Shown one piece after another: positions 3,649 through 31,271 of a stretch of DNA of 32,000 bases (positions are counted from its first letter, which is position 1; each line of letters starts with the position of its first letter). Origin of the DNA: Candidatus Bathyarchaeia archaeon (lineage in GTDB: Archaea; Thermoproteota; Bathyarchaeia; 40CM-2-53-6); assembly GCA_049513715.1 (NCBI GenBank), contig JBEKVV010000002.1:165548-197547 (forward strand). Direction: 5' to 3'. The notes under the pieces are model-generated. The model searched no databases. It was not told the DNA's origin and saw only the letters and a program-made list of their open reading frames with translations. The translations under genes were made by a program, and so were the position numbers.

Positions 3649-3948
3649 GTGAGCGGAGTCTTTCTCCGAGTCTTCAATGGCCCAGACCACACACTCGTTG
3701 CAGCATGCGACGCAGAACTGCTGGGGGAGACATTCAAAGAGGGAAAGCTCAAGCTCGAAGTGAAAGAGGGCTTCTACAAAGGCATCCAGACCAGCATCCC
3801 AGACGCTCTTCGCGCCATCGACGAAGCAGACATCGCCAACCTCGTAGGGAAGGCAATCATTGAAGCTGCCGTAAGGGAGAGACTGGTTGACCCATCCGCA
3901 GTTGCCCATATCGGCGGCGTTCCACACGTGCAGATCGTTCGAATGTGA
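3649..3948 (+). CDS. DUF424-like small conserved archaeal protein
   Basis: The pattern LVAACDAELLGETFKEGKLKLEV...FYKG...GGVPHVQIV matches my memory of the DUF424 family, which commonly follows aIF2-beta. Function is unknown. Confidence 0.65.
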   Translation: MSGVFLRVFNGPDHTLVAACDAELLGETFKEGKLKLEVKEGFYKGIQTSIPDALRAIDEADIANLVGKAIIEAAVRERLVDPSAVAHIGGVPHVQIVRM

Positions 3949-4023
3949 CCAGATGCCGTATCCAATCTACTACGCTTATTTACTCTAACCCAATATTCAG
4001 CGTAACTTAACGTCGGTGAAAGA

Positions 4024-4329
4024 TTGGGGAAGAAGAAGGTTCTGAGTGAGGGCGACCTCCGAGAGATGGTTATGCCTGGCGAGGGGCAGATGCTGGGGAT
4101 TGTAACTCAAATGCTCGGATACGACCGGCTCATGGTCAAATGTGGCGACGGTCACGAAAGGGTTTGCCGGATCAGGGGTAAGATGAAACGTCGGGTCTGG
4201 ATCAAGATTGGGGATGTTGTTTTGATGGCTCCATGGGACTTCCAAACAGACAGCAGAGGAGATATTCTTTGGCGATATACGGAAAGCCAGGCAAACTGGC
4301 TTCGCAGCAAAGGGCAACTCGCGGTCTAG
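4024..4329 (+). CDS. eif1a: translation initiation factor aIF1A
   Basis: S1-like OB core: PGEGQMLGIVTQMLGYDRLMVKCGDGHERVCRIRGKMKRRVWIKIGDVVLMAPWDFQ...GDILWRY. TTG start. Confidence 0.9.
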   Translation: MGKKKVLSEGDLREMVMPGEGQMLGIVTQMLGYDRLMVKCGDGHERVCRIRGKMKRRVWIKIGDVVLMAPWDFQTDSRGDILWRYTESQANWLRSKGQLAV

Positions 4330-4352
4330 CAATCTGTCAATGACTTCGAGGG

Positions 4353-17631: not shown

Positions 17632-18726
17632 CTAGGCGACTACCTTCTTTAGGTATTGAATGTCTCCCCCGCTTTTCCGCTCTTTCCAGAATTGACAGAC
17701 TGCGTTGTTGCTTTCAAGATAGCGGTTCATGGCGACCTCGGAGACCATTTGAGCAGAGCGGGAGATTTCCGCGAGATTCCACACGACCCCCCTGAGGGCT
17801 AGTGCGACTTTGCGGTCCTGAACATTCACGACGACTTCCTCTGTGAGGGTCTTTTCCATCTCCTCAATGTGTCTGGTTCGTTCAATGACCCGATTTGCGA
17901 GGTCGACGTCGAGCACGCTTAGGGCATCCATGGCGCCTTTGGCGATTGCTAGGGATTCGACGCCGAACTTGCAGACGTCATCGATCGTTGCGGAGAATTG
18001 TGTGTACTTTTCGTCTGCCAGGGACAGTATGAGATTTGCAATAGACTCGCTGCAATCCGCCATCTCTTCTAGGTATTTCGAGACAGCTCTGTAACCGATA
18101 GCATGCGTCGCAGATTCTATCCCAACGTGTCGTGACAACGGGATCTTTGAGACGGCGCGGAATATTTGCCGCAGAATAAGCCAATAGAGCCTATCTGCTT
18201 CATTCTCGAGTTCCAAGACCTCTAGGGCCAGTGAGAACTTCCTATCCGTCAGGGCCTGCATCGCTGTCTCTAGCATTGAGACTGCGACTTTGTGCAGCCG
18301 TCCAAGGAGTCCCGTGATCGGGAATTTTGTGGGGTCCAAGAAGCATTGAATCACTGCTTCCTTCGGAGTCTGCTCTACTATTCCCAGCCCGCTCAGCCTT
18401 CGAGTGGAATCGCGGATTTCCGCGAGTTGTTCGGGGGTAAGTTCGTTGGAGGAAGAGATTATGATTGTGTCGCGGCCGAGGATGTAATTCCCTGTAATCA
18501 TTCTCTCTAGGAGTTCGCGGTCTTTGCATGCGTCTGCGTTGATCTTGCAGACAGTCATCTCCTCGGATTCCATTTCGCTGCCAGGGGTTACGACTAGCTC
18601 GCCGAATTCGGAGAGGCGAAGTGTGACTACGCCTCCTTGCTTTAACCCCACTTGCCTAACCCAATCTCTTGGTAGTGATACGGTTAATGTCGAGTGGCCG
18701 ACTCTCTGGACCTTTCTAATCTCCAA
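17632..18726 (-). CDS. AbrB/SpoVT-domain + PhoU-domain regulator (paralogue 1)
   Basis: The N-terminal swapped-hairpin motif MEIRKVQRVGHSTLTVSLPRDWVRQVGLKQGGVV, followed by two PhoU-like helical repeats (EADRLYWLILRQ..., ...WNLAEISRSAQMVSEVA). TTG start. Confidence 0.8.
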   Translation of the reverse strand: MEIRKVQRVGHSTLTVSLPRDWVRQVGLKQGGVVTLRLSEFGELVVTPGSEMESEEMTVCKINADACKDRELLERMITGNYILGRDTIIISSSNELTPEQLAEIRDSTRRLSGLGIVEQTPKEAVIQCFLDPTKFPITGLLGRLHKVAVSMLETAMQALTDRKFSLALEVLELENEADRLYWLILRQIFRAVSKIPLSRHVGIESATHAIGYRAVSKYLEEMADCSESIANLILSLADEKYTQFSATIDDVCKFGVESLAIAKGAMDALSVLDVDLANRVIERTRHIEEMEKTLTEEVVVNVQDRKVALALRGVVWNLAEISRSAQMVSEVAMNRYLESNNAVCQFWKERKSGGDIQYLKKVVA

Positions 18727-27845: not shown

Positions 27846-28910
27846 TTGGAAGCTAGAAAAGTTCAGAGGGTTGGATACTCAACCCTGACCGTGTCCCTGC
27901 CAAGGGATTGGGTCGAGGATGTTAAACTGAAAGCCGGCGACATTGTCTCAATCAAACGGGAAGATGACGGGACCCTAAAACTGATCCCAGGAACGGAGCA
28001 TAAGCGGGACGAGGTCAAGAACTGCATCGTCAATGCGGACATGTGTAACTCCGATCACCTTCTCACCCGAGTCATAACCGCCAATTACATTCTCGGGCAC
28101 GACACAATTCAAGTCCTCGCCAAGGACGAATTGAAGAAACATCATCTGGAAGAAGTGCGAACGACGACGCAACGTTTGACGGGGTTAAGCATTGTCGAGC
28201 AAACCCTCAAATCGGTGACCCTTCAGAGTTTTGTTGACCCGACTCGTTTTCCGATTTATGGACTCATGCGCCGCCTACACATTATCATCACATCCATGCT
28301 AGATGCGTCAATGAAGGCATTACTTGAGAGGCGTCCTGAACTTGCCGGCGAAGTCGCTCATATGGAGGAGGAGTCTGATAGGATTTATTGGTTGATTGTT
28401 CGGCAGCTACTTCTCGCAATACGCGACCGCAGCGTAGGATCTAAGATTGGCATCGAATCGCCAATCCACATACCCGGTAACAGGGTCGTGGCGAAGACGC
28501 TGGAGGAGATGGCGGATTCAGCCGAGAGCATTGCTAACGAGGTCTTGGTACTGAAGGACAAGGAAATTGTGAGCGAGGCCATTATACATGATGTTACAAG
28601 GTTCTGTGCGCAGGTCGTCAAGATTTCTGAACAGAGCATGAAAGCGCTACTAACCTCGGACATTATTCTTTCGAACGAGGCTGTTGAGTTGGTGGAGACT
28701 GCGGAGAACGATGAAAGGAAACTCACGCAGAAGATTCTCACTTTGAAGGATGTTGGCGTGGCCACCAGCTTACGAATAATAGTCTGGAACCTCGGCCAGA
28801 TCAGCAAGTACTGCAGAATAATCGGTGAGATCACTATAAACAGGATAATGGAGAGGCCCTCACAAATCTGCGAATACCTCCCAATCCCAGAAGGCAGAGC
28901 AGCAAGCTAG
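27846..28910 (+). CDS. AbrB/SpoVT-domain + PhoU-domain regulator (paralogue 2)
   Basis: MEARKVQRVGYSTLTVSLPRDWVEDVKLKAGDIV plus PhoU-like repeats (ESDRIYWLIVRQ, VWNLGQISKYCRIIGEI). It is collinear with the 17632-18726 protein, roughly 40% identical by eye. TTG start. Confidence 0.8.
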   Translation: MEARKVQRVGYSTLTVSLPRDWVEDVKLKAGDIVSIKREDDGTLKLIPGTEHKRDEVKNCIVNADMCNSDHLLTRVITANYILGHDTIQVLAKDELKKHHLEEVRTTTQRLTGLSIVEQTLKSVTLQSFVDPTRFPIYGLMRRLHIIITSMLDASMKALLERRPELAGEVAHMEEESDRIYWLIVRQLLLAIRDRSVGSKIGIESPIHIPGNRVVAKTLEEMADSAESIANEVLVLKDKEIVSEAIIHDVTRFCAQVVKISEQSMKALLTSDIILSNEAVELVETAENDERKLTQKILTLKDVGVATSLRIIVWNLGQISKYCRIIGEITINRIMERPSQICEYLPIPEGRAAS

Positions 28911-29371: not shown

Positions 29372-29529
29372 TGCAGGAACGCCCTTTGTTACGGCATAAG
29401 GGAAAAGCAGAAAGATGGACGTTTCGGCACAGATTCTCGAAGAGGGGTTTGGAGCTTCCTAGAGCGCCCCGGTCAAAGAGGCGTGAATGTTGGCGCCGCC
29501 GGCAGGGTTCGAACCTGCGACCAACGGGT

Positions 29530-29553
29530 CACTGTGTTCTGGCAGCTTAACAG
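29530..29553 (-). other. tRNA-Phe intron 3 (24 nt, canonical 37/38 position)
   Basis: CUGUUAAGCUGCCAGAACACAGUG. C32-U33-G34 can pair with the intron's CAG, and the intron forms a UGUU/AACA helix. This gives an approximate bulge-helix-bulge with both junctions in bulges. Confidence 0.75.
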
Positions 29554-29560
29554 CTTCAGC

Positions 29561-29580
29561 CCCCACTGGCTTGGTAGGGT
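29561..29580 (-). other. tRNA-Phe intron 2 (20 nt, inside the 5' strand of the anticodon stem, 28/29-30/31)
   Basis: ACCCUACCAAGCCAGUGGGG. It contains the internal hairpin CCCUAC / GUGGGG (6 bp including one G-U). The boundary is ambiguous within a G-run. Confidence 0.7.
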
Positions 29581-29601
29581 CCGCTGCTCTAACCACTGAG
29601 C

Positions 29602-29622
29602 TGGCGTCTACGCGGTTGCGTA
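29602..29622 (-). other. tRNA-Phe intron 1 (21 nt, between positions 9/10 or 8/9)
   Basis: UACGCAACCGCGUAGACGCCA separates the acceptor/U8A9 from the D stem. It contains the internal hairpin UACGC-AACC-GCGUA. The boundary is ambiguous by 1 nt. Confidence 0.7.
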
Positions 29623-29673
29623 TACGGCGGCTCGTGCCTTTCGGCGGCGTTCGAGCCATTTCCCTTTCAGCGC

Positions 29674-29682
29674 TTTATTAAT
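29674..29682 (-). promoter_or_regulatory. TATA-box-like element upstream of tRNA-Phe
   Basis: The minus strand reads ATTAATAAA, 43-51 nt upstream of tRNA position 1. Confidence 0.35.
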
Positions 29683-29714: not shown

Positions 29715-29924
29715 TCATTCCTTCTTTTGGGCAGCTCCACAGAAAGCACACTTGCGAACGCCCTCGGGAATCAGCGAACTGCATGACTTGCAATTTACAA
29801 GCTTCTCAAGCTCAATAAATGGCTCCGCTGAGCTCAACTGTCTGCTCCTCCTGAGCCAGAGAGACAGAAGGATTAGAACCAGCACAGCGGCAGCCGCAGT
29901 GACTGCAACAATCGTCTCGTCCAT
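29715..29924 (-). CDS. small single-pass membrane protein with C-terminal zinc ribbon
   Basis: MDETIVAVTAAAAVLVLILLSLWLRR (one TM) followed by CKSC...CAFC. I start it at the internal ATG (29924), because the longer ORF (to 30035) would overlap the moeA start. Confidence 0.4.
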   Translation of the reverse strand: MDETIVAVTAAAAVLVLILLSLWLRRSRQLSSAEPFIELEKLVNCKSCSSLIPEGVRKCAFCGAAQKKE

Positions 29925-30005
29925 GAAGGCCACCAGTGAAGGTTGAATTGTAGGTCTACATATCTCTTGCAAACGCAAGAACGAAGCAGGCCTGAGTGGA
30001 AACTG

Positions 30006-31271
30006 ATGGGTCATCTTGAAACCGAGGGCTTCCAAAGGGTAAGCACCGTCGACGAGGGACTCCGAGTCTTCCTTGATGCAGTGGGCAACCCAAGAATTAG
30101 GGTCGAGACTGTTGCACTGGCTCGAGCTATTGGGCGGGTTCTGGGTGAAGATGTTATCTCAGACCGGTATCTGCCTGGAGTCGATCGCTCAGTTGTCGAC
30201 GGATACGCGGTGCGTTCAGCGGACCTTCAAAACACTTCGAAGGAAAAACCCGCTACACTGAAGGTAGTCGGTGAAAGCCGACTCGGCAAGCCATGCAAAC
30301 TCGCCTTGATTTCGGGAGAGGCTGTAGCGATGGCTACGGGCAGCATGATGCCATCTGGGGCCGACTCAGTTGTCATGGTCGAAGAAACCACTGCCTTGCC
30401 AGATCACCGAATAAAAGTTCGGGCTTCCGCATTGCCAGGTCAGCATATTTCCCGGAAAGGCGAAGACGCCGAACCAGGAAAGCAAATCCTACGGAAAGGT
30501 AGGCGCCTTCGGCCACAGGACATCGGCATCATGAAGGCTTTAGGCCACACAAAATCGCGGGTTGCGAAGAAACCGAGAATCGGCATCATCTCGACCGGTG
30601 ATGAGCTGGTAGACTCCCCTGCCAGGTTGAGACTGGGAAAGATAGTGGATCTGAATCGTCCCATCCTTTCAGGCCTCGCTGAAGAATTGGGGGCTGTGCC
30701 AGTTGACATAGGAATTGCAAAGGACAACGAAGGAGAAATCATGAATGCTCTTCGGAGGGCGTTGAAGGTTTCTGATGCGGTCTTGATCAGCGCTGGGTCG
30801 TCGGTAGGGAAGAGGGATTTGATCCCGAAATGCATCAATCAGCTCGGAAAGCCGGGAATCCTCATCCACGGGGTGGCAATGCGTCCAGCTCTGCCAACAG
30901 GCCTTGCAGTAGTCAAAGGCAAGCCCGTAGTATCGCTGCCAGGCTTCCCAGTGTCAGCAATGATCGCCTTCCGCGCCTTCTGCCGACCACTAATCGAACG
31001 GCTCTCTGGAGGTCAAATGCAGAATGAGCTCACTGTCAAAGCCGTACTGAAAGGTTCGATTAACGGAATCCAGGGCAACAGAACCTACGTCAGGGTCTCG
31101 CTCAGTCATTCACCGGACGGGCTACTGGCAGAGCCATTGAAGATCCAACGCTCTTCAGCGTTAATGAGTATGGTCGACGCGAACGGAATCGTCACAATCC
31201 CAGAAGGCGTTGCCTCAGTTGAGGCAGGGCAGGTGGTTGATGTGGCAGTAATTGGGGAAATACAAATGTAG
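30006..31271 (+). CDS. moeA: molybdopterin molybdenumtransferase MoeA
   Basis: VDGYAV, ISTGDELV and SAGSSVGKRDL, with the four-domain length typical of MoeA. The ATG at 30006 (MGHLETEGFQRVSTVDEGL) is preferred over the ORF-track start at 29943. Confidence 0.88.
   Translation: MGHLETEGFQRVSTVDEGLRVFLDAVGNPRIRVETVALARAIGRVLGEDVISDRYLPGVDRSVVDGYAVRSADLQNTSKEKPATLKVVGESRLGKPCKLALISGEAVAMATGSMMPSGADSVVMVEETTALPDHRIKVRASALPGQHISRKGEDAEPGKQILRKGRRLRPQDIGIMKALGHTKSRVAKKPRIGIISTGDELVDSPARLRLGKIVDLNRPILSGLAEELGAVPVDIGIAKDNEGEIMNALRRALKVSDAVLISAGSSVGKRDLIPKCINQLGKPGILIHGVAMRPALPTGLAVVKGKPVVSLPGFPVSAMIAFRAFCRPLIERLSGGQMQNELTVKAVLKGSINGIQGNRTYVRVSLSHSPDGLLAEPLKIQRSSALMSMVDANGIVTIPEGVASVEAGQVVDVAVIGEIQM

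Follow-up and report, generated by a model that had tools for sequence, protein, structure and literature searches.

A three-intron tRNA-Asn(GUU) gene in Bathyarchaeia with a tRNA-Phe look-alike loop and a conserved leader copy of its acceptor strand

Which tRNA does an interrupted gene encode when two different anticodon loops can be read from it? The question is raised by a 141-nt element on the minus strand (29631–29491) of a 32,000-nt stretch of DNA from a Candidatus Bathyarchaeia archaeon (contig JBEKVV010000002.1), hereafter the window. The parts of a tRNA are all present there: an acceptor stem GCCGCCG/CGGCGGC, a D arm reading GCTC-AGTGGTTA-GAGC, a T arm GCAGG-TTCGAAC-CCTGC, G73 and an encoded CCA. 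A first-pass annotation had found these same elements and read them as an interrupted tRNA-Phe(GAA) gene, of a kind known from Thermoproteales and some other archaea of the TACK group (Thaumarchaeota, Aigarchaeota, Crenarchaeota and Korarchaeota) and easily missed by standard finders. The interrupted tRNA is real, the host is a TACK archaeon, and the raw window indeed gave no match from ARAGORN and none from Rfam at the gathering threshold. A permissive Rfam scan placed the tRNA model at 29602–29502 with 27.7 bits (gathering score 29), just below the threshold, and with a 53-nt insertion in the anticodon arm; the tRNA is therefore real but disrupted. We conclude with high confidence that the element is a tRNA-Asn(GUU) gene with introns at 8/9, 30/31 and 37/38, composed as follows.

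29491..29631, minus strand: whole tRNA-Asn(GUU) gene, 141 nt, four exons and three introns, CCA encoded (ARAGORN on the spliced product; partial Rfam match).
29624..29631, minus strand: exon 1, GCCGCCGT, positions 1–8; invariant in 20/20 orthologs.
29603..29623, minus strand: intron 1, ATACGCAACCGCGTAGACGCC, 21 nt, between positions 8 and 9; relaxed splice motif.
29581..29602, minus strand: exon 2, AGCTCAGTGGTTAGAGCAGCGG, positions 9–30 (D arm, A26, G27–G30); from the ortholog alignment and the Rfam match.
29555..29580, minus strand: intron 2, ACCCTACCAAGCCAGTGGGGGCTGAA, 26 nt, between positions 30 and 31; strict splice motif (hBHBh′).
29548..29554, minus strand: exon 3, GCTGTTA, that is G31, C32, U33, the anticodon G34-U35-U36 and A37; invariant in 20/20 orthologs.
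29530..29547, minus strand: intron 3, AGCTGCCAGAACACAGTG, 18 nt, at the canonical 37/38 site; central helix 4/4, both bulges present.
29491..29529, minus strand: exon 4, comprising A38, the 3′ strand of the anticodon stem (CCCGT), the variable loop TGGTC, the T arm, CGGCGGC, G73 and CCA.

Removal of the three introns restores a canonical cloverleaf of 76 nt, which ARAGORN identifies as tRNA-Asn(gtt); its anticodon loop is CUGUUAA, with GUU in a 7-nt loop flanked by U33 and A37. The ambiguity resides in the string GCTGAA-GCTGTTA(A), invariant in the orthologs described below, in which either CTGAAG(A), a Phe loop, or CTGTTAA, an Asn loop, can be read as the anticodon loop. The first-pass annotation had chosen the former. 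It was right that there are three introns, with the canonical 37/38 site and two non-canonical sites, 8/9 and 30/31, occupied; its isotype does not hold, and two of its boundaries, where intron 2 ends and where intron 3 begins, are each displaced by 6 nt. What it took for exon 3, GCTGAAG (29560–29554), consists of the 6 nt that close intron 2, plus the exon base G31; exon 3 is in fact GCTGTTA (29554–29548). Deleting its three segments does yield 76 nt, called tRNA-Phe(GAA) by ARAGORN, because the true introns also sum to 65 nt. How ambiguous the region is can be seen from the intron mode of ARAGORN, which after removal of the first two introns as originally drawn preferred a tRNA-Ile(GAU) with a 35/36 intron. 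We dropped this candidate: G37 is wrong for Ile, no splice motif occurs at that site, and ARAGORN reports Asn once the boundaries of intron 2 are corrected.

The strict archaeal splice motif has the form bulge-helix-bulge (BHB) with 3-4-3 geometry, written hBHBh′ (PMC3239211; PMC7714728). At each exon–intron boundary two 3-nt bulges stand on either side of a 4-bp helix, and the strict form requires flanking helices on the exon side (h) and on the intron side (h′) of at least 2 bp each. The splice cut falls after the second base of each bulge, and the last six exon bases before the 5′ splice site were read as four central-helix and two bulge bases, as were the last six bases of the intron. By this measure intron 2 is a strict BHB. 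Its central helix, CAGC (C25AGC28) × GCTG, has 4/4 pairs in 20/20 orthologs and bulges GG|A and AA|G; outside it stand G24:C32 and A23:U33, inside it the hairpin CCCTAC/GTGGGG (h = 2, h′ = 6). The inner helix begins one base inside the cut in 20/20 orthologs, with a mean of 5.6 bp versus 0.58 in shuffles and with swaps between CG and TA pairs.

Intron 1 is relaxed, owing to a C·A mismatch. Its central helix, CGCC (C3GCC6) × GACG, has 3/4 pairs in 20/20 orthologs, and the window shows the bulges GT|A and CC|A. The inner hairpin is TACGC/GCGTA, and the outer helix GAGC/GCTC makes use of leader positions −2 and −1 (h = 4, h′ = 5). Anchored at the bulges, the inner helix averages 3.75 bp against 0.59 in shuffles, and four of its pairs have changed on both sides. 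Intron 3 is of the relaxed hBH type, which is accepted only by broad-specificity enzymes such as (αβ)2 or ε2. Its central helix pairs CTGT (C32UGU35) with (A/G)CAG across orthologs (ACAG in the window), is complete in 15/17 and is bounded in the window by bulges TA|A and TG|A. On the intron side there is a single closing G:C pair, which covaries between GC and CG (8 versus 4), while the outer helix is the anticodon stem itself, 7 bp long after intron 2 has been removed (h = 7, h′ = 1). The intron measures 11–18 nt where present and is absent from three orthologs. Two orthologs, L021 and L022, have an intron 3 that ends in GCTGTA, with a central helix of 3/4 pairs (U·U mismatch) and an internal hairpin overlapping the helix strand; their motif is more relaxed than that of the other orthologs.

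An unbiased iterative BHB scan of 29700–29460 recovered the same boundaries. Introns 2 (29580–29555) and 1 (29623–29603) ranked on top in the first round, and intron 3 (29547–29530) acquired its 7-bp outer helix only once intron 2 was out.

The gene is found upstream of MoeA in 24 loci from Bathyarchaeia genomes, representing 21 distinct sequences, 20 of which were scored against the exon/intron model. All 20 parse under this one model, and every spliced product is tRNA-Asn(gtt) according to ARAGORN. The model runs GCCGCCGT, intron 1, AGCTCAGTGG..GAGCAGCGG, intron 2 (ending in GCTGAA), GCTGTTA and intron 3, followed by ACCCGTTGGTC, the T arm, CGGCGGC, G and CCA. In the aligned precursors, 93.4% of cells are paired, compared with 28–50% in slid controls; the formal count gives eight pairs changed on both sides, and the observed covariation score was reached by 0/500 shuffles. 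The feature is far beyond chance: its architecture is kept in 21 distinct orthologs whose neighbouring MoeA is only 42–61% identical. Three orthologs (L020, L023 and L027) have two introns only and lack the 37/38 intron: they read ...GCTGAA and then GCTGTTAACCCGT, so that GCTGTTA adjoins ACCCGT uninterrupted. The ortholog at L016 (minus strand) has no encoded CCA and reads ...CGGCGGCGCTATT; here ARAGORN mis-types the locus, c[2024,2131], as tRNA-Trp(cca) with a 17-nt intron.

Upstream of the gene lies a second copy of the 5′ acceptor strand, preceded by a TATA-like box.

29642..29648, minus strand: leader copy GCCGCCG with an invariant A after it, located 10 nt before the tRNA 5′ end (conservation, folds).
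29674..29681, minus strand: TATA-like box TTAATAAA, the probable promoter, with its 3′ end 25 nt before the leader copy.

Across the 21 distinct upstream regions, GCCGCCG and the A after it are 95–100% conserved, whereas the flanks are 38–76% conserved, and the distance from the copy to the tRNA 5′ end is 6–14 nt. An AT-rich, TATA-like 8-mer ends 21–26 nt upstream of the copy in 21/21 orthologs. This is the spacing expected of an archaeal promoter for a start at or just before the copy, and the box is probably the promoter. When the precursor is folded with its leader, the minimum-free-energy structure of 20/20 orthologs has the copy base-paired to the 3′ acceptor strand and is 3–13 kcal/mol better than a fold in which the real acceptor stem is forced. 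With the leader left out, the real acceptor stem forms and the exon–intron helices of the intron-1 motif do not. The RNAalifold consensus likewise joins the leader copy to the 3′ acceptor strand. Because the acceptor stem does not differ between any of the orthologs, there is no covariation on the decoy pairing proposed below. A BHB-like motif in the window leader (29649–29629, minus strand; CTCG/CGAG, bulges AA|C and CC|G), spanning the copy and the first three bases of the tRNA, is not conserved in the orthologs; a cut there would truncate the acceptor strand, and the motif is probably fortuitous.

Four other explanations of the locus have to be weighed against the tRNA-Asn assignment. That the gene is a tRNA-Phe(GAA), with introns at 29622–29602, 29580–29561 and 29553–29530, is extremely unlikely in our judgement. 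These boundaries leave a 76-nt cloverleaf, tRNA-Phe(gaa) for ARAGORN, with the classic loop CUGAAGA and G37; the acceptor stem, D arm and T arm would serve a tRNA-Phe equally well. The splice motifs speak against it. At the Phe boundaries the central helix has 1–3/4 pairs for intron 2 and 2–3/4 for intron 3, as opposed to 4/4 at the Asn boundaries, and the unbiased scan, which returned the Asn introns, never returned the Phe ones. The GAA triplet lies inside intron 2, and the 'Phe loop' is wholly accounted for by the intron-2 central-helix strand GCUG, its bulge AA and the exon base G31. In the three orthologs without intron 3, CTGTTAA is joined directly to the anticodon stem, which argues for tRNA-Asn, and the Phe model would need a 6-nt intron, CTGTTA. 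The discriminator base points the same way. Asn identity rests on the anticodon and G73, reinforced by t6A37, while G34, A35, A36 and A73 are strictly conserved in tRNA-Phe (PMC9976931). G73, which the first-pass annotation had rightly flagged as odd for tRNA-Phe, is found in all orthologs; as an Asn identity element, it was a clue to the isotype and, together with A37, suits tRNA-Asn rather than tRNA-Phe. A better folding with another anticodon, GUU, has thus displaced the one first proposed. A related idea is that one precursor gives both tRNA-Asn(GUU) and tRNA-Phe(GAA) through alternative splice sites. GCUGAAG and GCUGUUA are both invariant in all orthologs and both products take the same cloverleaf, but the invariance of GCUGAA is already demanded by the intron-2 BHB, no BHB-like motif occurs at the Phe junctions of any ortholog, G73 would again be wrong for Phe, and the 6-nt intron would again be needed where intron 3 is missing. 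We regard two products as exceedingly improbable.

Several observations weigh against the tRNA-Asn gene as drawn here. The central helices are invariant and give no covariation signal, of which the inner hairpins and the T stem are the sole source; the mismatch in the intron-1 central helix is conserved; the BHB conformers are stable without being the local minimum-free-energy folds (−9.6 versus −16.3, −10.9 versus −16.1 and −5.9 versus −8.9 kcal/mol); RNAalifold favours other registers for the invariant helices; and the whole case is drawn from the DNA of uncultured organisms. The mismatch, the energies and the failure of standard finders on the locus would also suit a pseudogene in decay, or a relic derived from a tRNA whose processing into a functional product has ceased. 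This is nevertheless very improbable, given that the exons are near-invariant while introns and flanks diverge with their helices kept by compensatory change, at 42–61% MoeA identity, and that synteny, the promoter-like box and the encoded CCA are conserved. The leader raises a different doubt, namely that the upstream GCCGCCG is the true 5′ exon of a leaderless tRNA and that the stretch from the copy to 8/9 is one larger intron or contains an extra one. Three points speak for this: the copy sits 21–26 nt downstream of the TATA-like box, at the expected start of transcription; every predicted precursor fold pairs it to the 3′ acceptor strand; and its sequence CGCC-GA|A could offer GACG the same central helix and bulge as the real strand. 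However, U8 is near-universal in tRNAs, and the A after the copy would give an A8 product, GCCGCCGAAG, whereas the downstream strand would give the U8 product GCCGCCGUAG. An intron ending at 7/8 could have no BHB, the two strands being the same sequence with no central helix between them; it is the downstream copy, not the upstream one, that adjoins the intron-1 inner helix; and the downstream GCCGCCGT is itself invariant. We rejected both a fourth intron and a leaderless exon built on the upstream copy, and consider this explanation highly unlikely.

For the tRNA-Asn gene, a route from precursor to product can be proposed. The data show its exon/intron architecture, BHB geometry, conservation, covariation and isotype; we infer the enzymes, the splicing order, where transcription starts and what the leader copy does. 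Transcription from the TATA-like promoter would probably give a precursor of ~160 nt, which a splicing endonuclease would cut at the three BHBs before the exons are ligated. No splicing endonuclease or RNA ligase gene lies within the window. The (αβ)2 endonuclease is found mainly in TACK archaea, Bathyarchaeota included (PMC7714728), and accepts relaxed BHBs (PMC7714728; PMC3239211). In the motif of intron 2, G27 and C28 belong to the central helix, C32 and U33 to the outer one, and the motif of intron 3 would require the same four bases in helices of its own, outer and central; because the two cannot coexist, intron 2 must leave first. Its removal would then allow the anticodon stem and the intron-3 motif to form. 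Mutually exclusive BHBs of closely spaced archaeal introns have been described before (PMC8450103). The GCUG-AA tail, which with G31 imitates a Phe loop, arises as a by-product of the strand paired to C25–C28. The predicted final product is a 76-nt tRNA with the loop CUGUUAA, A37 and G73.

The motif of intron 1 competes with the acceptor stem, and the leader copy might act in cis as an 'acceptor decoy': in the primary transcript it would hold the 3′ acceptor strand, leaving the real 5′ strand (G1–C6) free for the intron-1 BHB, within which leader positions −1 and −2 would pair with G10–C13. After splicing, the real strand would displace the decoy and the leader would be trimmed. We put this forward tentatively, on the basis of predicted folds, and alongside it the suggestion that relatives with a fourth intron at 50/51 raise the known intron maximum; taken together, the two are possible but doubtful. 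When metagenomes were scanned for orthologs in which exon 1 runs directly into exon 2, only unrelated tRNAs and no ortholog lacking intron 1 came back; an intron-blind detector of T arm plus acceptor strand, applied to ~0.5 Mb of Bathyarchaeia loci, turned up no further disrupted tRNA in which a leader copy could be compared.

The fourth intron occurs in related metagenome-assembled genomes, at L024 (minus strand, ~3940–4105 in reverse-complement coordinates), L026 and L030, where 19–21 nt of the form AGCG...GACTAG are inserted at 50/51. It has a perfect BHB, with central helix GGTC × GACT and hairpin GCGC/GCGC, and it is missing from the sister locus L025. Across Bathyarchaeia the same orthologous gene therefore bears two, three or four introns, which makes a natural series of gains and losses. 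The published maximum is three introns per archaeal tRNA gene (PMC4033280; PMC8450103), and in the literature searched we found no report of a four-intron archaeal tRNA and no paper describing tRNA introns in Bathyarchaeia.

The window gene joins the known multi-intron archaeal tRNAs, here beyond the Thermoproteales. In that order (Pyrobaculum, Thermofilum and Caldivirga; Sugahara et al. 2007/2008, reviewed in PMC4033280 and PMC8450103), several short introns, up to three, likewise interrupt one gene at canonical and non-canonical positions, with strict and relaxed BHBs; the BHBs of adjacent introns form only in sequence, and standard finders miss the genes. The differences are that the present host belongs to Bathyarchaeia, that the orthologous gene spans two to four introns within one class, and that the 8/9 intron is accompanied by a conserved leader copy of the acceptor strand. 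We know of no description of such a copy for Thermoproteales. Compared with the canonical archaeal 37/38 hBHBh′ intron, intron 3 is alike in its site, in the anticodon stem serving as outer helix, in two 3-nt bulges and in the pairing of positions 32–35 with intron positions −6 to −3; it differs in having one G:C pair as its intron-side helix, which makes it hBH-like, and in a motif that awaits the removal of intron 2. The nuclear tRNA-Ile(UAU) of the red alga Cyanidioschyzon merolae also carries three BHB introns, one of them in the D region and one at 37/38, but it is eukaryotic and its third intron lies in the T loop; its order of removal was shown experimentally (PMC3728597), whereas that proposed for the window gene follows from shared nucleotides only.

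An intron tail that imitates the anticodon loop of another tRNA is a trap for automated and manual calling alike. With such genes missed or mis-typed, genomes of this widespread lineage of sediment and soil would seem to lack tRNA-Asn or to carry a spurious tRNA-Phe. Heavily disrupted tRNA genes, with two to four introns in one ortholog, now reach Bathyarchaeia and provide a series for studying intron origins. If the leader decoy is real, it would explain the formation of a splice motif despite competition from the acceptor stem, and it would be a previously undescribed built-in folding device; the fourth intron at 50/51, if true, would raise the known maximum of introns per tRNA gene.

The genes adjoining the tRNA encode a GNAT acetyltransferase, a PhoU/AbrB-like protein, MoeA, SRP19 and ribosomal protein S8e, and the order PhoU-(GNAT)-tRNA-MoeA-SRP19-S8e is kept down to ~42% MoeA identity. 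MoeA homologs and 80 related assembly loci are nearly all labelled Bathyarchaeia or Bathyarchaeota, and the exact sequence also occurs on metagenome contigs of 336–410 kb; contigs that carry it are JGI Ga0427951_000021 and Ga0208688_1000004 and ENA ERZ27249777 k141_483681. The remainder of the window is ordinary archaeal chromosome, with FtsZ, MetRS, aIF2-beta, RIO kinase, topoisomerase VI and pyruvate:ferredoxin oxidoreductase (PFOR). Directly upstream of the tRNA promoter, a small conserved open reading frame (29715–30035, minus strand), also present in L005 and L007, encodes a hydrophobic segment and a C-terminal CxxC...CxxC zinc-ribbon-like motif; it has no Pfam match. Two PhoU/AbrB-domain paralogs are found in the window, at 17632–18726 and 27846–28910. 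In L005, V-ATPase subunit I, CBS and PhoU stand directly beside the tRNA and MoeA; relative to that locus the window has ~10 kb extra between them, holding hypA/hypB, DUF6390, a major facilitator superfamily transporter, PFOR subunits and an aminotransferase. Unrelated to the window, several soil-metagenome contigs (L090, L092, L101, L104, L106, L107 and L110) carry a tRNA 3′ half (...GGTCGCAGGTTCGACTCCTGCCGGTGGCG), a TAA linker and a 5′ half (GCCGCCGTAGCTCAGTGGATAGAGCAGCGG). Such units (for example L101, ~4230–4330) recur nearby, and from their sequence they look like circularly permuted or otherwise rearranged tRNA genes.

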